Of a DNA stretch of 64,000 nt, positions 19,274 through 41,518 are shown one piece after another; position 1 is the first letter of the stretch, and every line of letters starts with the position of its first letter. This DNA is from Actinomycetota bacterium. GTDB taxonomy: Bacteria; Actinomycetota; Thermoleophilia; Gaiellales; F1-60-MAGs149. Below the pieces are notes generated by a model. That model worked only from the letters and a program-made list of their open reading frames with translations. It ran no database searches and was not told where the DNA came from. The stretch lies in contig VFJZ01000007.1 of NCBI GenBank assembly GCA_009885805.1, forward strand, positions 10,059 through 74,058, read 5' to 3'. The translations under genes and the position numbers were made by a program.

Positions 19274-20797
19274 GTGGCATCTCGTCGTATGCTCGTGAGG
19301 ATGACCGCGCCGTCGAACCACCCGCACGACGATCCGGACCTCGGTCGGCTGACCGAGGCGATCGGTCTCGTTGTCGCCTCGGCCGCCATCGTCGGTGGCA
19401 CCGAGTACCCGGTGATCCGGGGCGCAGGCGTGGTGGCGCTGCTCGGAGGCGCACCGCCGGATGGTGACGACGGCGCCGCCGCGTGGCAGAGCCGTGTGCA
19501 TCCGGCGGACGCAGAAGCCTACCGGATCGCCGTCGAGCGGATGGGCGGCGGTCTGTCCGCCGATGTCGAGTATCGCCTCGTCGGCTACGACGGGATCGTC
19601 CGGACGGTCTGGGATCGGTCGCGCGCGCGCCTTCTCGCGGACGGAACGCTGGTCGTCGACCGGTTCGTCCTCGACCTGACCGGCCGGAGGGACGAGCACG
19701 ATCGGCGCGCGGTCGACCTCCGCGAGGACGTCGGCCGCCTCGAGCGGGCGCTGGCCGAGTCCGATCGGCGGTCACGGATCGACGCGCTCACAGGGGTGTA
19801 CAACCGCATGCACCTGGCCGAGGTGATCGAGTCCGAACTCGGTCGCGGCGCGCGACAGGCGACGACGCCAGGGCTCTTCCTCATCGATCTTGACCATTTC
19901 AAGCGTGTCAATGACACCTTCGGCCACCTCCCCGGCGACGCCGTGCTCGTCCAGGCTGCGGCGCGGATTCGCGACGCCGTTCGACCCTACGACTGCGTCG
20001 CCCGTTTCGGTGGCGAGGAGTTCGCCGTCGTCGTCGCCGCGATCACCGACGACGCGGTCCTGCGGACGATCGGCGAGAACCTCCGGCAGGCGATCGCGGC
20101 CGAGCCGTTCGAGGTCGACGACGCGCTGATCTCCCTGACCGGCTCCGTCGGCTGTGTCCGCGCCGATCGCGATACCTGGACGGCCGACGCGCTGATCGCC
20201 GCCTCGGACCGCGCGCTCTATCACGCCAAGGGCGCCGGTCGGAACCGCGTCCACACCGCGCACGACGTCGACGACACGGCTCCGCCAATGGCCGACGCTG
20301 GCATCGAATTGATCGCCGAGGCGCTCGCGGCCGCGGCCGCGGCTCGCGAACGGCGGCCGCTGGAGCCGGCGCGACTCGCCGCCGAACTGGCCGGCATCGC
20401 GAGTTCTGCGCTTGGCCTCGACCTGCGGGCAACGGCGCGTGCGAGCCTCGCGGCCCTGCTGGCCCACGCCGGACCGGTGCCGCTCGATCCGGCCGAGCGC
20501 CTCTCGCCCGTGCCGGACCGCGTCGCCCTCGCCGACCACGCGTTGACGACGGAGGACCTGGTACGGCGTGTCGCGGGCCTTCAGGAGGTGGCCGCGGTCC
20601 TGCGCCAGCAACACGAACGGTTCGACGGTACGGGCGTGCCCGACGGCCTCGCCGGCACCGACATCTCGATCGAGGCGCGGGTCGTCGCGGTCGCCGTCGC
20701 GGCCGCCGTCTTCGGTGACGACAGCCTCGTGGCGGTGCCCGAGGGGGTTCTCGACCCGGCGGTCGTCGCTGCCCTGCAGGGTGCGATCGCGCCGTAG
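19274..20797 (+). CDS. PAS - GGDEF diguanylate cyclase with a degenerate HD-GYP-like C-terminal domain
   Basis: GGEEF with an I-site ([14 protein letters not shown]). PAS-like segment ([18 protein letters not shown]). The C-terminus [15 protein letters not shown] resembles HHExxDGxGYP, but the upstream HD position reads LLAHAG. Start is uncertain (GTG 19274, or ATG 19289/19301). Confidence 0.8.
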
Positions 20798-25757: not shown

Positions 25758-26600
25758 TTACCCCGCTCGGCGTTCGAGCCACTGGCGGCCGGGCCGTTCC
25801 ACCGACAACGCGACCTGATCGCGACCGTCCCGCTTCGCCCGGTACAGCGCGGCGTCGGCCACCGCGAACAGTTCGTCACTGCTCCGGGCATCCGCCGGAA
25901 ACTCCGCCACGCCGGCCGAGACCGTGGTACCGACGGGGCGGCGGCCACGGCTCGGTACGACCCGTGTCCCCGCCACCGCCTCGCGGATCCGGTCGGCCAG
26001 CCGCCCCGCACTGTCGGCGTCACCCGGCACGAGCACGACCAGTTCCTCGCCGCCGTACCTGGCAGCGATGTCGCTGTCCCGCGTCGCACGCCGCACGACG
26101 ACACCGAACCGCGCCAGCAGATCGTTGCCCGCGGCATGGCCGTAGCGGTCGTTGAACTCCTTGAACCGGTCGAGGTCGAGAATGATCAGCGAGCAGGTGC
26201 CGCCGTAGCGTCGTGTTCTCGCGACCTCGCGCTGGAGCGCGTCGACGAAGAAGGCGTACGTGCGCAGACCGGTGAGGCGGTCCGTGAACGCCTCCCGCTC
26301 GACGCGGTCGGACTCGGTGTCGCGGCGCGACGCGCGGTCGAAGATCGCGACTGCGCCGACGGCGAACGCGACCCGCAGCGGGGTGTCGAGCGGCGCCAGA
26401 CCTGCACCGAAGACGCCGACGAGCAGCCCCGCGACGCCGCCGCCGGAGGCGGCGAACCCGACGCCTGCGGCAACGAGTGCCGCCTGCGCCCTCGGCTCGA
26501 TGGCAGCGGTGAGGTGCGCGGCGACGAGGAGTGCGACCGCCACCCCGATCGTCGCCACGCGGAAGCGCCGTCGTCGCACGGCCAGGCTTGCCACGCCCAA
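25758..26600 (-). CDS. membrane-anchored GGDEF diguanylate cyclase
   Basis: 280 aa with an N-terminal hydrophobic region of about 100 aa. GGEEL active-site variant with an I-site (RDSD-IAARY-GGEEL). DLDRFKEFNDRYGH. Confidence 0.8.
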   Translation of the reverse strand: MGVASLAVRRRRFRVATIGVAVALLVAAHLTAAIEPRAQAALVAAGVGFAASGGGVAGLLVGVFGAGLAPLDTPLRVAFAVGAVAIFDRASRRDTESDRVEREAFTDRLTGLRTYAFFVDALQREVARTRRYGGTCSLIILDLDRFKEFNDRYGHAAGNDLLARFGVVVRRATRDSDIAARYGGEELVVLVPGDADSAGRLADRIREAVAGTRVVPSRGRRPVGTTVSAGVAEFPADARSSDELFAVADAALYRAKRDGRDQVALSVERPGRQWLERRAG

Positions 26601-31640: not shown

Positions 31641-32150
31641 ATGCCGCCCGTTACGATCGAGTCCACCCGCTTCGGCACCGTCGAGATCGAAGACGACATC
31701 GTGCTGACGCTCGAACAGGGGATGATCGGCTTCCCCGATCAGCGGCGGTACGCGATTCTCAAGCAGCGCGAAGACTCGGTGTTCATGTGGCTCCACGGCG
31801 TTGACGACGGGTCGCTCGCGTTCCCGATCGTCCTGCCGTGGGTCTTCTACTGGGACTACGAGGTCGATCTGGCCGACGCCGACATGGCCGCGATCGGTGT
31901 CGAGCGGGCAGATCAGATCTCGATCTACTGCGTGGTCAACGTCGGCGCCGACGTACGGAACGCGACGATCAACCTGTTCTCGCCGATCGTCGTCAACAAT
32001 GGCGATCGTCGCGCACGGCAGGTCATCAACACGATCGATGCGTACACGACCCGCGACCAACTGTTCCGCGATACCGACAGCCCGACGCCGGTGGCGATGC
32101 ACGAATCGGACGCGCCGAACGTCACGGTGCTGTCCCCCGGGTTCCAGTAG
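31641..32150 (+). CDS. fliW: flagellar assembly factor FliW
   Basis: 169 aa. [35 protein letters not shown] ... FMWLHGVDD ... FPIVLP. Confidence 0.85.
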
Positions 32151-32179
32151 GATCCGGTGGCAACGCCAGGGAGGGCACC

Positions 32180-32404
32180 GTGCTCGTACTGACCAGGAAG
32201 ATCGGCGAGACGTTCGTCGTCGGCGACGACATCACCGTGACGGTGATCGACATCGTCGGCGGCAACAAGGTGCGGATCGGTATCAACGCGCCCTCGAGCG
32301 TCCCCGTGTACCGCGAAGAGATCTGGCTCCAGATCCAGGAGGAGAACCGGCAGGCTGCCGCCGCCGGCCCGGATCTGCTCGACCAGCTCGAGTCATCCAC
32401 GTAA
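32180..32404 (+). CDS. csrA: carbon storage regulator CsrA (FliW-partner type)
   Basis: GTG at 32180 after gggaggg. (M)[48 protein letters not shown], plus a C-terminal extension. Confidence 0.9.
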
Positions 32405-32428: not shown

Positions 32429-32887
32429 GTGGCGGCCGACAAGGAAGTGATGACGGCGCGCACGCGCAACTGCAGGGAGTGCGGAGACGCCTTCCCGCTG
32501 ACCAGGATCGATCAGGTTCTCTGCGTCGCGTGCGTCGACGATGATCGCGACGTCCGCCTGATCGTCCAGACCCTCGTGAGCGCACGGCGTCCGACGCTCT
32601 CGGCCGTGGCGCTCGCGACGGGGATCTCGCTCGCTCGCATCCATGAACTCACCGCGGCCGGTCGCCTCTCGGGTGTGTCCGTCGGCACGGACTCCCCGGC
32701 GGGCGATGACCTCGTCATCGCCACGTCTTGCGTCTGTCAGCCCGGCACGGTCGGGCGGTGCATCCACTGCCAGATGCGGCTCGCGAAGACGTTCGCCGAC
32801 GCCACGTCCGGGGCGACGCCGCACGTTGCGACCGCACGAAGAGGCATGCACAACCGGCCGTCCGACGGCGGTCGACGGCGCTCCTAA
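32429..32887 (+). CDS. YvyF-like flagellar-operon zinc-ribbon protein
   Basis: N-terminal CRECG ... CVAC, a central HTH-like segment (PTLSAVALATGISLARIHELTAAGRL), and C-terminal CVCQ ... CIHCQ. This is the architecture I recall for Bacillus YvyF (TIGR03826). Start is 32429 or 32450. Confidence 0.5.
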   Translation: MAADKEVMTARTRNCRECGDAFPLTRIDQVLCVACVDDDRDVRLIVQTLVSARRPTLSAVALATGISLARIHELTAAGRLSGVSVGTDSPAGDDLVIATSCVCQPGTVGRCIHCQMRLAKTFADATSGATPHVATARRGMHNRPSDGGRRRS

Positions 32888-37323: not shown

Positions 37324-37919
37324 TGAGCGCCGTCCCGCGCTACAACGCGCTCGAGCTGTCAGCCGTGCAGGAGATCGCCAACATCGGCGCCGGCAGCGCT
37401 GCCACCGCGCTCTCGCTGCTCGTGGGACGGCCCGTCGACATCGGCGTGCCGGCCGTCGAGCTCGTCTCGCTGGCCGTCGCCTCCGAGCGCATCGGGCCGG
37501 CCGAGGCCCGCGTCGCCGCGGTGCTGACGCCCGTCAAGGGGGACGTCCCGGCGAGCCTGCTGCTGGCGTTCCCCGACGACGCGGCGGCCGTGCTCTGCGG
37601 GCTGCTCGGGACGACCGCGGACAGCGACATGGGCCGTTCGTGTCTCCAGGAGATCGGCAACATCCTGACGGGGTCGTACACGACCGCGATCGCCGGGATG
37701 ACCGGACTCGCGATCGAGCCCGAGCCGCCCCTGCTCGCGGTCGACATGCTGGGCTCCGTCATGGACGCGGTGTTGTCGCTCGCCGTCGAGGCGGCGGACA
37801 GCGTGCTGTTCCTCCAGACGGCGATCCGGATCGAGGGCGTCGAGTGCTCGTTCGGCTTCCTGTTCGTCCCGTCCGAAAATGCGATCCCCGCCCTCCTCGC
37901 CGCGCTGGGGCTGGCATGA
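37323..37919 (+). CDS. cheC: CheY-P phosphatase CheC
   Basis: 198 aa with two intact S-x3-E-x2-N-x22-P sites (SAVQEIAN...P and SCLQEIGN...P). Confidence 0.8.
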   Translation: MSAVPRYNALELSAVQEIANIGAGSAATALSLLVGRPVDIGVPAVELVSLAVASERIGPAEARVAAVLTPVKGDVPASLLLAFPDDAAAVLCGLLGTTADSDMGRSCLQEIGNILTGSYTTAIAGMTGLAIEPEPPLLAVDMLGSVMDAVLSLAVEAADSVLFLQTAIRIEGVECSFGFLFVPSENAIPALLAALGLA

Positions 37920-38407
37920 GCGGTGCCCGGCACATGGTGCGGATGGCCGAGCAGGTGGTGTCGAGCGACCCCACCGACATGCTCGTCTCGCTCGGCCTCG
38001 GGTCGTGCATCGGTCTGGCCATCGTCGACGAGGGAGCGCGCGTGGCCGGTCTCGTCCACATCGTGCTGCCGAAGGCGCCGGCGGGAGTCAACGGCGCCCT
38101 CGCCCCGAAGTTCGCCGACTTGGCCGTACCGAAGCTGCTCGAGGACGTGATGGCGGCCGGCGGACGGAGCGGCAACCTGCGCGCCGTCCTGTGCGGCGGC
38201 GCCCACATGTTCGGGAATGCCGGCACCAATCCGATCATGCAGATCGGCAGCCGGAATGCCGCTGCGACGATGGAGATGCTGCAGAAGCTCCGCATCCGCG
38301 TCCGCGCGCACGACACCGGGGGCAGCTCGGGCCGGTCGATCGAGGTTCGCGTCGCCACCGGCGAGGTCTACGTCCGCGGTGTCGGGCAGCAGCCGAGGCA
38401 GCTGTAG
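37916..38407 (+). CDS. cheD: chemoreceptor glutamine deamidase CheD
   Basis: ATG at 37916 (ATGA overlap). LGLGSCIGLAIVDEGARVAGLVHIVLP. Confidence 0.85.
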   Translation: MSGARHMVRMAEQVVSSDPTDMLVSLGLGSCIGLAIVDEGARVAGLVHIVLPKAPAGVNGALAPKFADLAVPKLLEDVMAAGGRSGNLRAVLCGGAHMFGNAGTNPIMQIGSRNAAATMEMLQKLRIRVRAHDTGGSSGRSIEVRVATGEVYVRGVGQQPRQL

Positions 38408-38410
38408 GGC

Positions 38411-38599
38411 ATGGGCGACGAGATCCTCTCCCAGAGCGCGATCGACGCGCTGCTCGCGTCGCTGGCGGCCGCAGACGAGCCGGCCGCCGCGGCCCAAACG
38501 CCCGTGGACCCGGAGTCCGACGAGCCGTCGCCGCCCGGCGGCAGGCGGAGGGCCCTGGCTGTGACCGGCGATGACCAGCAGGCGGAGGACGCCGCCTAG
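38411..38599 (+). CDS. 62-aa mini-ORF carrying a FliM-type N-terminal LSQSxIDALL peptide
   Basis: MGDEILSQSAIDALLASL followed by an acidic/Pro-rich tail. Same reading frame as fliM, separated from it by TAG (38597-38599) plus 9 nt. Translation is unproven. Confidence 0.4.
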   Translation: MGDEILSQSAIDALLASLAAADEPAAAAQTPVDPESDEPSPPGGRRRALAVTGDDQQAEDAA

Positions 38600-38608
38600 G
38601 CGGTTCGC

Positions 38609-39631
38609 GTGGCACACGGCAACGACACCCTCTCGCAGTCCGAGATCGACGCGCTGCTCGCGGTGGTCGCCAGCGAACCGTCCCTAGCTGGATCCGGCGA
38701 GTCGCACACGAGCGTGCGCGTCCAGGCGATGGACTTCCGGCGTCCGTCGAAGTTCAACAAGGACCAGCTGCGGACGCTCGAGATGCTGCACGACACGTTC
38801 GCGCGGCTCGCCGCGACGTACCTGTCGGGCGCGCTGCGCTCCGTTGCCGACATCTCGGTGCTCGGAGCCGAGCAGGTCACCTACGGCGAGTTCATCTCGT
38901 CCCTGCCGGTACCCGCCTTCACGAACATCCTCCAGCTCGACCCGCTCGGCACCAACGCGATCCTGGCGCTTGATTTGCCGCTCATCTTCTCGATGATCGA
39001 CCGCCTCCTCGGCGGGCCGGGACAGGGCGCGACGCGGCTCCGCGAGCTGACCGACATCGAGATGTCGCTGTCGCGGACGGTCATGAACCGGATGCTGGCG
39101 GAGCTGTCGACGTCGTGGTCGGAGCTGGTCGGCGTCGATTTCAGTCTCCGCCACACCGAGATGAACCCCCAGTTCGCGCAGATCGCGCCGCCGACCGAGC
39201 TGTCGGTGCTCCTGTCCTTCCAGATCCGGCTCGGCGACTCCACCGGTGTGATGACGCTGTGCCTACCGTGGCGGTCGATCGAGTCGGTCGCGCCGAGCCT
39301 GACCGCAAGCTCCTACTTCTCCGGCCAGCGCACCGGCGCCGAGATCCTCGATCTCCGGCCGCCGCTCGACGACGTCACGATCGGTGTGCGCGCCGAGGTC
39401 GGCGCGGTCGAGCTGACGATCGACGAGGTGCTGTCGCTGCGCGAGGGTGACGTCGTGCGTCTCGGTGTGCCCGTCGATCGACCCCTCGTCCTCTACGCCG
39501 GCAACACGCCGACGTACCACGTCGTTCCCGGCACGCACCGGCGTCAGCTCGCCGTGCAGGTCCACGACCGCGTGCCCCGGCCGCACCATGACGCGGTCGA
39601 GGCGGAGCCGGTCGCGGAGGAGGCACCGTGA
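38609..39631 (+). CDS. fliM: flagellar motor switch protein FliM
   Basis: GTG start. 340 aa. N-terminal TLSQSEIDALL (CheY-P-binding peptide), then MDFRRPSKFNKDQLRTLEMLHDTFAR, then the C-terminal SpoA-like domain. Confidence 0.9.
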   Translation: MAHGNDTLSQSEIDALLAVVASEPSLAGSGESHTSVRVQAMDFRRPSKFNKDQLRTLEMLHDTFARLAATYLSGALRSVADISVLGAEQVTYGEFISSLPVPAFTNILQLDPLGTNAILALDLPLIFSMIDRLLGGPGQGATRLRELTDIEMSLSRTVMNRMLAELSTSWSELVGVDFSLRHTEMNPQFAQIAPPTELSVLLSFQIRLGDSTGVMTLCLPWRSIESVAPSLTASSYFSGQRTGAEILDLRPPLDDVTIGVRAEVGAVELTIDEVLSLREGDVVRLGVPVDRPLVLYAGNTPTYHVVPGTHRRQLAVQVHDRVPRPHHDAVEAEPVAEEAP

Positions 39632-41136
39632 ACGCGGCCGATGCCGTCGCGCGCGCGGTGACCCTGAACGCGGCCGCCTGCGCCCGCGTGATCGGGACCC
39701 TGTACGGCCAGCCCGGCTCGTTCGGCGAGGTCGTCGTCGAGGAGACGCCCGACAACACGTGGGAGGCGTTCACATTCCCGCTCGTCTGCGTCCGGATCCA
39801 CTGGATCGAGGGCATTACTGGCGAGAACATGTTCGTCCTCACACCGGAGCAGGCGCGGCACCTCGCGACGGCGATGATGGGCATGGCCGACTCCGACGCC
39901 GAGGGCGAGCTGAACGACATCGAGATGTCCGCGGTGTCCGAGGCGATGAACCAGATGATGGGCTCAGTCGCGACGGCCATGGCCGAGGCGCTGGGCCTGA
40001 CGACCGACATCGCGACCCCGACCACGATCATCCTCAAGAGCCGCGAAGAGGCGGAGGCCCTGAGCGAGGCGCGTTATGCCGCCAAATTCACCGTTACCGC
40101 GGGCAGCCTGGACGCGACGATTGTGCAAGTCATTCCACTGGAGTTCGCGGCGATGCTGGAGACGGCGTTCACGACGGCTGAAGTCGCGGACGAGGTTCTC
40201 GGCGGGATGCACTCGGAGAAGATCGGCCGCCTCAACGACGACACCTACTCGGCCGTCGAACGAACGGCGCGGATCGCCGCGGAGTCGTCCGCCGACGTGC
40301 TGACGACCCTGCTCGGCGTGAAGGTGACGGCGACGCTGCCGGAGATCGAGACGGCGCCGAAGGATCCGCTCGCGGAGCTGGCATACCCGCTGGTGACGGT
40401 CGAGGTCTCGTACGTGTCCGGCGTGAACGGCGCCAACCTGTTCGCCCTCACGCCCGCACAGGCCGCCACCTTAGCGGCCGTGATGATGGGCTCGGATGAG
40501 CCTCTCGGCGACGGGCTGTCGGACCTCGAGCTGTCGGCAGTCTCCGAGGCCATGAACCAGATGATGGGCGCGGCGACGAACATCCTCGCCGACACCCTGT
40601 CGCTCGAGATCGAAGTCGCGCCGCCGATCTGCGTCGTCATCCAGAACGTCGAGGAGGCGCGCGCGACGTTCGAGCACCCGGCCTACTGCTCGCGGTTCCG
40701 GATCGTCTCGGACAAGCTCACCGCCGACGTCGTGCAGCTCGTACCGGCCGATTTTGCACTGCATCTCCAGGCAGCGTTCGCGGCTGCCGAGGCGGCCCGG
40801 TCGATCGGTGCCGAGGCCGCTGCGCCCTCGCAGACGGACTCGTCCGCAACCGCCAATGCCGCGGCCGCGCAGACCCCGACGGGCGCCGTCAGTGTCGCCG
40901 CGCTGCGAACGGTCGGCGTGCGCTTCTCCGCGGAACTCGGGCGCGCCAGGATCGACATCGCCAGCGCCATGAACCTTCCCCCGGGCGCGATCGTCGAACT
41001 CGATCGAATGCCCGACGACCCGATTGACGTGCTCGTCAACGGGCGCGCCTTTGAGCGCGCCAGGCTCGTGCTCGTGGATGGCGAGTATGCCGTCCAGATC
41101 GTCTCGCTCGATCCCCCGAAGCTGCTGGCAGGCTGA
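39628..41136 (+). CDS. fliY: flagellar motor switch phosphatase FliY (two CheC-like units + FliN/SpoA domain)
   Basis: 502 aa. SAVSEAMNQMMG-x-P (S-x3-E-x2-N-x22-P) occurs twice, about 200 aa apart. C-terminal FliN domain (VRFSAELGRARIDIASAMNLPPGAIVELDR ... VLVNGRAFERARLV). GTGA overlap with fliM. Confidence 0.85.
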   Translation: MNAADAVARAVTLNAAACARVIGTLYGQPGSFGEVVVEETPDNTWEAFTFPLVCVRIHWIEGITGENMFVLTPEQARHLATAMMGMADSDAEGELNDIEMSAVSEAMNQMMGSVATAMAEALGLTTDIATPTTIILKSREEAEALSEARYAAKFTVTAGSLDATIVQVIPLEFAAMLETAFTTAEVADEVLGGMHSEKIGRLNDDTYSAVERTARIAAESSADVLTTLLGVKVTATLPEIETAPKDPLAELAYPLVTVEVSYVSGVNGANLFALTPAQAATLAAVMMGSDEPLGDGLSDLELSAVSEAMNQMMGAATNILADTLSLEIEVAPPICVVIQNVEEARATFEHPAYCSRFRIVSDKLTADVVQLVPADFALHLQAAFAAAEAARSIGAEAAAPSQTDSSATANAAAAQTPTGAVSVAALRTVGVRFSAELGRARIDIASAMNLPPGAIVELDRMPDDPIDVLVNGRAFERARLVLVDGEYAVQIVSLDPPKLLAG

Positions 41137-41158: not shown

Positions 41159-41518
41159 ATGGCTCGTATTCTCGTAGTAGACGACGCGGCGTTCATGCGG
41201 ATGATGGTGAGCAACATCCTCACGCAGAACGGGCATGAGGTCGTTGGCGAGGCCGAGAACGGCGCGCAGGCAGTCACGAAGTACGCCGAACTGAAGCCCG
41301 ACGTGACGACGATGGACATCACGATGCCCGAGCAGGACGGCATCGCAGCGCTGAAGGCGATCCTCGCGAACGATCCGGCGGCGAAGATCGTGATGTGCTC
41401 GGCACTCGGCCAGGAGGCCAAGGTGATCGAGTCGATCCGCTCCGGCGCGAAGGACTTCGTCGTCAAGCCGTTCCAGCAGGATCGCGTGCTGTCGGCGGTC
41501 GCGAAGGCGCTCGGCTAG
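41159..41518 (+). CDS. cheY: chemotaxis response regulator CheY
   Basis: aggagg RBS. MARILVVDDAAFMRMM ... DVTTMDITMPEQDG ... KDFVVKPF. Confidence 0.9.
   Translation: MARILVVDDAAFMRMMVSNILTQNGHEVVGEAENGAQAVTKYAELKPDVTTMDITMPEQDGIAALKAILANDPAAKIVMCSALGQEAKVIESIRSGAKDFVVKPFQQDRVLSAVAKALG

Follow-up and report, generated by a model that had tools for sequence, protein, structure and literature searches.

A predicted small gene with the docking motif of FliM lies between cheD and fliM in a subclade of the Gaiellales

We describe a small open reading frame (ORF) that lies between cheD and fliM in the chemotaxis and flagellar gene cluster of an Actinomycetota bacterium of the Gaiellales. The cluster was read in 64,000 nt of contig VFJZ01000007.1, and this whole stretch is called the window below. 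The ORF, here named the mini-ORF, has 62 codons, and its predicted product, the mini protein, opens with a copy of the N-terminal docking peptide of the neighbouring FliM (FliM_N), the segment that captures phosphorylated CheY (CheY-P). Judged by its sequence in the window and in relatives, the mini-ORF is a real and conserved small protein-coding gene, predicted to be translated. What is new is that a known docking motif appears to have turned into an independent gene under selection, in one uncultured soil actinobacterial subclade as far as sampled, and the mini protein probably modulates the control of swimming as a soluble factor of a new kind. The elements of the mini-ORF and of fliM are as follows.

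38411 to 38599, + strand: mini-ORF, ATG at 38411, 62 codons and a TAG at 38597-38599; predicted stand-alone gene for a small FliM_N-like protein
38414 to 38458, + strand: direct repeat of family D1, copy 1, at the 5' end of the mini-ORF
38426 to 38455, + strand: docking motif LSQSAIDALL, residues 6-15, with Ala in place of the E of EIDAL
38432 to 38470, + strand: residues 8-20, an amphipathic helix by prediction (single-sequence AlphaFold2, predicted local distance difference test score ~80-85)
38471 to 38596, + strand: acidic, Ala/Pro-rich tail, predicted to be disordered (AlphaFold2 shows no structure), ending ...AEDAA; fast-evolving, with in-frame insertions and deletions (indels)
38597 to 38608, + strand: TAG of the mini-ORF and 9-nt spacer preceding the fliM start; probable termination-reinitiation coupling
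38609 to 39631, + strand: fliM, GTG start, 340 residues, complete; its LSQSEIDALL motif is at 38630-38659
38618 to 38662, + strand: direct repeat of family D1, copy 2, at the 5' end of fliM

The 62-residue product, MGDEILSQSAIDALLASLAAADEPAAAAQTPVDPESDEPSPPGGRRRALAVTGDDQQAEDAA, starts with MGDEILSQSAIDALL, and ALAVTGDDQQAEDAA is a peptide encoded within 38411-38599. A preliminary description of the locus had placed the ORF at these coordinates with this sequence and had taken it for a second copy of the LSQx(E/A)IDALL peptide of FliM, and direct reading bears out both points. The pattern LSQ..ID.L[LI] occurs exactly twice in the six frames of the window, at 38426 and 38630 (0 of 200 shuffles), and the 5' ends of the two genes form a direct repeat of 45 nt with 84% identity. 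The GC content by codon position, 0.81/0.56/0.94 in the mini-ORF and 0.70/0.45/0.92 in fliM, is a coding signature like that of the neighbours, with a third-position value (GC3) of 0.94. That FliM is full length from 38609, as the same description had it, is confirmed by its Pfam domains FliM (residues 42-229, E 3e-58) and FliMN_C (residues 253-321), and the acidic, Pro-rich tail of the mini protein, which it had called probably disordered, shows no structure in the AlphaFold2 model beyond residues 8-20.

The likeness to FliM lies in the first ~20 residues, where a predicted helix with the FliM_N/EIDAL motif leads into a flexible linker; of the consensus, L, S, Q, I, D and L are invariant in the mini proteins, and the acidic residue is not kept. 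In a search of 177,635 PDB sequences with the family profile, the best match was the N-terminus of FliM, MGDSILSQAEIDALL, aligned residues 1-15 on 1-15, with an E value of 0.49 that is weak alone and a position that is exact. Five mini proteins searched against Pfam and NCBIfam at E values up to 10 gave no match, neither to the middle domain (PF02154) and the SpoA/FliMN_C domain (PF01052) of FliM nor to PF04509 and PF13690 of the FliY/CheC/CheX phosphatases, whose CheC-like fold bears D/S-x3-E-x2-N active-site motifs; the nearby cheC and fliY do encode these domains.

Relatives were collected from cheD-fliM junctions in genome loci and from contigs of CheD homologues, and a FliM-based search of GTDB species genomes, in which all hits were metagenome-assembled genomes (MAGs), placed the window among the Gaiellales/Thermoleophilia. 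After a profile search with six members, the mini-protein family comprised nine distinct homologues including that of the window, 49 to 62 residues long, and DNA was read for six of them. The members are as follows.

Window: 62 residues, MGDEILSQSAIDALLASLAA...
L035 / P0122: at L035 2034-2183, 49 residues, MGDEILSQSAIDALLASLAAEPPAPTPDEPKAASAKAPWASDDESEDAA
L005 / P0123: at L005 3834-3998, 54 residues, MADAKLSQGSIDDLIAQLLAGGGGSAAGDGPAFGDDGPVGFADTPADAPEADAA
L036 / P0121: 56 residues
L045 / P0124: 50 residues
L047-L050 / P0125: at L047 6001-6174, 57 residues; 7 contigs, representing at least 4 samples, carry it unchanged
P0126: 54 residues, found by the profile, context not read
P0127: 57 residues, found by the profile, context not read
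L040: partial, ending at the contig end

Each of the nine mini proteins has its motif begin at residue 6-8, and positions M1, L6, S7, Q8, I11, D12, L14, A16, L18 and A20 are invariant. The genomic setting is equally constant: the mini gene begins 2-11 nt past the cheD stop in 7 of 7 members read in context, fliM starts 2-9 nt past the mini TAG in each of the five contigs long enough to include it (window, L035, L005, L045, L047), and the ten-gene order from cheW to cheY in L047 is the same as in the window. Every mini-bearing lineage found falls in one Gaiellales subclade, as far as sampled; the samples with the gene include SRR8670876 and JGI 3300045918. In L036, at least 40 nt past the mini TAG (1319-1358, TGTCCCGATTCATTCATTCGTGGG...GCGAGGAG) resemble no fliM start before the contig ends, and the tight junction of the mini gene with fliM seems to have been remodelled there.

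The family was recovered by the six-member profile alone. A single-sequence search with the 62-residue product had no match in an index of 5.8 billion proteins, nor did an exhaustive phmmer search with it against 1.84 billion cluster representatives; exact look-up found the window mini protein absent from the protein collection and gave no record of the exact window FliM protein in the assembly index. A metagenome scan from a two-sequence alignment returned 600 pattern matches, of which 0 were confirmed. In public annotation the mini proteins are 'hypothetical protein' or unnamed, apart from the 49-residue P0122, which JGI/IMG names 'flagellar motor switch protein FliM', a mis-annotation due to the common N-terminal motif.

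Substitutions were counted by the method of Nei and Gojobori, with the motif core taken as 16 codons. Between the window and L035 the core differs by 5 synonymous and 0 non-synonymous changes (chance of all being synonymous ~0.002), and between L005 and L036 by 6 and 0 (~0.0003); the remaining within-clade pairs have core ratios of non-synonymous to synonymous substitution rates (dN/dS) of 0.09-0.23. For the whole mini-ORF, dN/dS ranges from 0.08 (L005 vs L036) to 0.41. Since cheD and fliM in the same genome pairs give 0.06-0.36 at synonymous divergences (dS) of 0.4-1.0, the mini-ORF is about as constrained as its neighbours and has had ample time for decay. It is under protein-level purifying selection in two independent clades.

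The ends of the protein tell the same story. All eight complete mini proteins finish in Ala-Ala (EDAA, ADAA, ANAA, EAAA, ESAA), and the codons of these two residues vary at the third position (GCC/GCG) with the amino acids fixed. The motif and this terminus share one frame in 8 of 8 complete members despite lengths of 49-62 residues, so every indel is a multiple of three. The start codon, a Shine-Dalgarno-like site and the stop are likewise conserved across the members read as DNA. The invariant Ala-Ala looks like a protein-level constraint that, speculatively, is reminiscent of ssrA/ClpX-type degrons.

These data bear on two accounts in which the ORF would not be a functional gene, both raised in the preliminary description. 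According to one, the TAG is a sequencing or assembly error or is read through, so that what the cell makes is a FliM carrying two docking peptides in tandem. The frame relation in the window, as described before and as read directly, would allow it: 198 nt separate the two starts, and only the TAG at 38597-38599 and three sense codons (GCG GTT CGC) stand between the ORFs. However, a 942-nt contig of the Logan assembly of run SRR8670876, on which the 62-residue ORF is called as a gene, is 100% identical to window positions 37695..38636, TAG included, though it may share the reads of the window. TAG is also the mini stop in 6 of 6 members read as DNA, and the offset from the mini-ORF to fliM is 2 modulo 3 in L035, L005, L045 and L047; the L036 contig does not extend to a fliM start. 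TAG is moreover an ordinary stop in this genome, ending 12 of 42 window genes, cheD among them. Because the in-frame arrangement is confined to the window copy and the Logan contig carries the TAG, error and read-through are ruled out for practical purposes, and we leave this account only a vanishing probability. The conservation of the TAG and the mini-ORF in related genomes, proposed earlier as a check, holds in the mini-bearing relatives; other sister lineages are without the mini-ORF.

The other account takes the mini-ORF for a relic of a 5' duplication of fliM, non-functional and open since stop codons are rare in 70%-GC DNA. As to origin it is probably right, given the 45-nt repeat; as to the dead status it fails against the purifying selection. 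The repeat, a patchy distribution with easy loss and the lack of a curated-family match would all suit a relic. Against it stand selection on the protein in two independent clades at dS 0.4-1.0, indels that are all in frame, the conserved start codon, Shine-Dalgarno-like site and stop, and the coding-type GC3. The selection counts, the frame-keeping indels and the fixed Ala-Ala therefore lead us to reject a dead relic, which we regard as very improbable.

The features around the mini-ORF are the following.

37916 to 38407, + strand: cheD, 163 residues, Pfam CheD (E 2e-26), directly upstream of the mini-ORF, stop TAG at 38405-38407
38395 to 38409, + strand: cheD-mini-ORF junction with GAGG, the cheD stop TAG and GG, weakly Shine-Dalgarno-like, 3 nt ahead of the ATG
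39628 to 41136, + strand: fliY, 502 residues, two CheC-like modules and a C-terminal FliMN_C (SpoA) domain
41159 to 41518, + strand: cheY, 119 residues, Pfam Response_reg (E 1e-28), the presumed ligand once phosphorylated

By Pfam, and by eye for csrA, the gene order in the window is flgK, flgL, fliW, csrA, a zinc-ribbon gene, cheW, cheB, cheR, cheA, cheC, cheD, mini-ORF, fliM, fliY and cheY. The mini-ORF opens 3 nt past the cheD stop, and fliM starts 9 nt past the mini TAG. Clearer Shine-Dalgarno-like sites occur at the same place before the mini gene of relatives, TAGGAGGAGACATG in L035 and TGAGGAACCAATG in L005. The cheD gene is also called as a 163-residue gene on L026, with a 100% match to P0001. 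At the junction of the mini-ORF with cheD and fliM neither a promoter-like nor a terminator-like site nor an Rfam match was found, and an RNA element is not indicated by the sequence. As noted in the preliminary description, the window FliY is without an N-terminal docking peptide, because fliY, with its CheC-like and FliMN_C domains, cannot be extended upstream; both of its CheC-like modules carry ...SAVSEAMNQMMG....

The reading that we favour, tentatively and at slightly under an even chance, is that the mini protein is a diffusible competitor or buffer that binds CheY-P and is made from a selected, fliM-derived gene, with binding predicted from the identity of the motif. The mini gene would be translated within a cheW-cheB-cheR-cheA-cheC-cheD-mini-fliM-fliY-cheY operon, giving a free polypeptide of 49-62 residues in which the first ~20 form a FliM_N-type helix, L-S-Q-x-x-I-D-x-L-[LI]-A-x-L, and the rest a disordered acidic tail. 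The docking site of FliM_N on CheY-P is the alpha4-beta5-alpha5 face, the key salt bridge in E. coli being that of FliM Asp12 and CheY Lys119 (PMC7012829), and FliM_N serves as a high-affinity capture site or tether in a two-step binding of CheY-P (PMC9126983). The helix of the mini protein would bind the same face as FliM_N and, because it is not tethered to the C-ring, would compete with FliM_N for CheY-P. As a soluble buffer or competitor it would shift the sensitivity of the motor, the lifetime of CheY-P, or both, and the Ala or Ser at the conserved acidic position would probably tune affinity or partner choice. Translational coupling with cheD and fliM, which fits the gaps of 3 nt and 9 nt at the two junctions, could fix the ratio in which the mini protein is made. 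Since a free copy cannot pass CheY-P on to the middle domain of FliM, a soluble competitor or buffer is the simplest reading.

Several observations weigh against this reading. Position 5 of the motif is E or D in every retrieved FliM N-terminus and in two of three FliY N-termini (Gln in the third), and in all mini proteins this conserved Glu is replaced by Ala or Ser. By general rules of helix capping, a Glu here would complete an S-x-x-E capping box. Its loss probably lowers or retunes affinity. The tail is not conserved between the two mini clades, a wider mini-protein family was not found by sequence searches, and the patchy distribution, with close relatives that do without the mini gene, indicates that it is dispensable. 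For the isolated E. coli FliM_N peptide a weak binding (dissociation constant ~27 uM) is cited in PMC9126983, so that a simple sponge would need high abundance. In Vibrio the charge reversal E9K at this Glu of FliM disturbs chemotaxis and does not prevent localisation of FlhG (bioRxiv 10.1101/2022.04.21.489128). Lastly, the EIDAL motif is reported to be necessary and sufficient for binding of FlhG in other bacteria (PMC12826062; bioRxiv 10.1101/2022.04.21.489128).

Three other functions were weighed. The mini protein might act as an adaptor in trans, its helix capturing CheY-P and its tail binding CheC, CheD or FliY, so as to deliver CheY-P to the phosphatase or to the CheC-CheD adaptation module; it would then stand in for the cis docking peptide of the Bacillus-type FliY. 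This alternative is attractive because the Gaiellales FliY has lost its own peptide: FliY is without it in all Gaiellales loci, and FliY of the distant Thermoleophilia L016, L018 and L019 starts with LSQE[EQ]IDALL and an acidic Ala/Pro linker. The mini gene also lies between cheC-cheD and fliM-fliY in every readable context. The tails speak on both sides. In clade A (L005, L047, P0126, P0127) they hold two or three tandem GDDGP[VI][FL] units, for example GDGPAFGDDGPVFGDDGP, which could be a second short linear motif, and they are constrained (L005 vs L036, tail dN/dS 0.08). The tails nevertheless differ between the clades, those of the window clade being DEP-type, rich in Pro, quickly diverging and without GDDGP repeats, and many relatives with the same peptide-less FliY do without a mini gene, so that we consider an adaptor unlikely, though worth keeping in mind.

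Somewhat less probable again is that the helix engages FlhG, a MinD-type ATPase, and so acts on the assembly of the C-ring or the number of flagella, not on chemotaxis. FlhG is bound through the EIDAL motif of FliM in the polar flagellates Shewanella and Vibrio and through that of FliY in B. subtilis (PMC12826062; bioRxiv 10.1101/2022.04.21.489128), and the consistent loss of Glu could mean specialisation for a partner other than CheY-P. However, flhF and flhG are not visible within the 64-kb window, the mini gene sits in the che block and not beside flhA/flhF/flhG, and the E9K change in Vibrio disturbed chemotaxis while FlhG could still localise. The peptide might also be functionless, and only translation through the stretch with reinitiation at fliM would matter. 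The distances agree with such coupling, as fliM starts 2-9 nt past the mini TAG in five lineages (2-8 nt in those other than the window) and the nearest GAGG in mini-bearing lineages is ~17-26 nt upstream of its start; in mini-less relatives a TAGGAG-type site stands at the junction of cheD with fliM instead, ~10 nt upstream. A mere coupling ORF is nonetheless improbable: amino acids of the motif core are kept through synonymous change (0 non-synonymous vs 5-6 synonymous), Ala-Ala is invariant while third codon positions vary, and L036 keeps the ORF despite the unrelated sequence, 40 nt or more, behind its stop.

The mini gene was probably born when part of fliM, at its 5' end, was duplicated at the junction with cheD, as the 45-nt repeat with 84% identity indicates, and the sequence points to fliM, not fliY, as the donor of its 5' end. 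In the sister lineages L027, L029, L030, L033, L038/L039, L042/L043, L046, L022 and L007, fliM follows cheD directly, at distances from overlapping codons to ~14 nt. The che block is lost or moved in L001-L004, L017, L020, L028, L031 and L034, where the zinc-ribbon gene abuts fliM, and all 8 metagenome loci found with a clade-specific fliM DNA pattern are without the mini-ORF. The contig of L041, a sister of the window clade, ends 24 nt past cheD and is uninformative. Neighbour-joining trees of CheD and of FliM give two mini-bearing groups, {window, L035} and {L005, L036, L040, L045}, and mini-less lineages are interleaved with both. Because the groups have in common the position of the gene, Ala or Ser for Glu, the A-x-L-x-A continuation and the Ala-Ala end, one origin followed by several losses is favoured. 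Loss would be mechanistically easy through recombination between the 5' repeats of fliM.

A derivation of the mini 3' tail from the 3' end of cheD, by a tandem duplication spanning the junction, was considered and dropped, as local alignment compared with shuffles had z = 0 and the cheA 3' end used as a control scored higher. The tail may hold a trace of the MDFRRPSK box of fliM, interrupted by a 2-nt gap, but the match is no more than suggestive (z = 1.8, p = 0.07). Abnormal fliM frames were seen in two long-read MFD MAGs: in L008 (3986-5815) the frame is open for 600 residues, an apparent fusion to the following gene, and in L020 (3908-4438) it closes early. These may be indel errors, or a real fusion and a real truncation.

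Elsewhere in the cluster, fliW (Pfam) is followed by a CsrA-like ORF recognised by eye (31641-32404, + strand), the FliW-CsrA pair of flagellin control. The zinc-ribbon-like protein encoded upstream of cheW (32429-32887, + strand; 152 residues) has CxxC...CxxC motifs and no Pfam match, and homologues of its gene lie directly upstream of fliM in the nine loci mentioned above (L001-L004, L017, L020, L028, L031, L034); it is a conserved gene of the Gaiellales flagellar cluster. Two genes with GGDEF domains, at 19274-20797 (+ strand) and 25761-26600 (- strand), flank the flagellar and chemotaxis cluster, one of them with PAS and HD domains as well, which suggests an input of cyclic di-GMP to motility.

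Set beside known systems, the mini protein resembles FliM_N itself (E. coli MGDSILSQAEIDALLN, complex in PDB 1F4V): in both, L-S-Q-x-x-I-D-A-L-L stands at the extreme N-terminus and includes the Asp whose partner in E. coli is CheY Lys119, and a short helix, predicted in the mini protein, leads into a flexible linker. Unlike FliM, the mini protein has neither the middle nor the SpoA domain and cannot hand CheY-P to the switch, has Ala or Ser for the E of EIDAL, and is encoded apart from fliM, between a start and a stop codon of its own.

The N-terminal peptide of the Bacillus/Thermotoga-type FliY captures CheY-P for the CheC-like phosphatase. Here the same motif is followed by an acidic, Ala/Pro/Gly-rich disordered linker, and FliY of L016, L018 and L019 is similar over the first ~40 residues, but that peptide is held in cis on a phosphatase/SpoA protein, whereas the mini protein would be a separate, free product. 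The C-terminal peptide of CheZ and the P2 domain of CheA compete for the alpha4-beta5-alpha5 face of CheY, one ligand excluding the others; they have no sequence relationship to the mini protein and are parts of larger enzymes. Phosphate sinks, such as the second CheY of Sinorhizobium, are also soluble components that lower the CheY-P available to the motor, but a sink drains phosphoryl groups, whereas the mini protein would bind the phosphorylated regulator.

In the literature searched we found no precedent for a natural gene encoding a free FliM_N peptide, and nothing on motility in the Gaiellales. It is conceivable, if doubtful, that the mini protein represents a new class of chemotaxis regulator: a diffusible, disordered mini-protein built on the docking helix and free of the motor, whose level, and with it the quantity of CheY-P buffered, is set by translational coupling to cheD and fliM and by turnover through Ala-Ala as a possible ClpX-type degron, or one with a repeat-bearing tail that hands CheY-P to CheC, CheD or FliY. 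It would then also be a clear, dated case in which a signalling protein was born de novo through partial gene duplication, from tether to soluble competitor.

Small ORFs of this type are missed or misnamed by annotation pipelines, as seen here in the names 'FliM' and 'hypothetical' and in the absence of the window copy. In textbook accounts, CheY-P is concentrated at the flagellar switch through its capture by FliM_N. A free and selected copy of FliM_N, if the reading as competitor or buffer is true, would add an unrecognised layer of control to the output step of chemotaxis, where it would act by competition or buffering. It could also serve as a natural test of the two-step 'tether then switch' model and as a compact example of a linear motif that becomes an independent gene.

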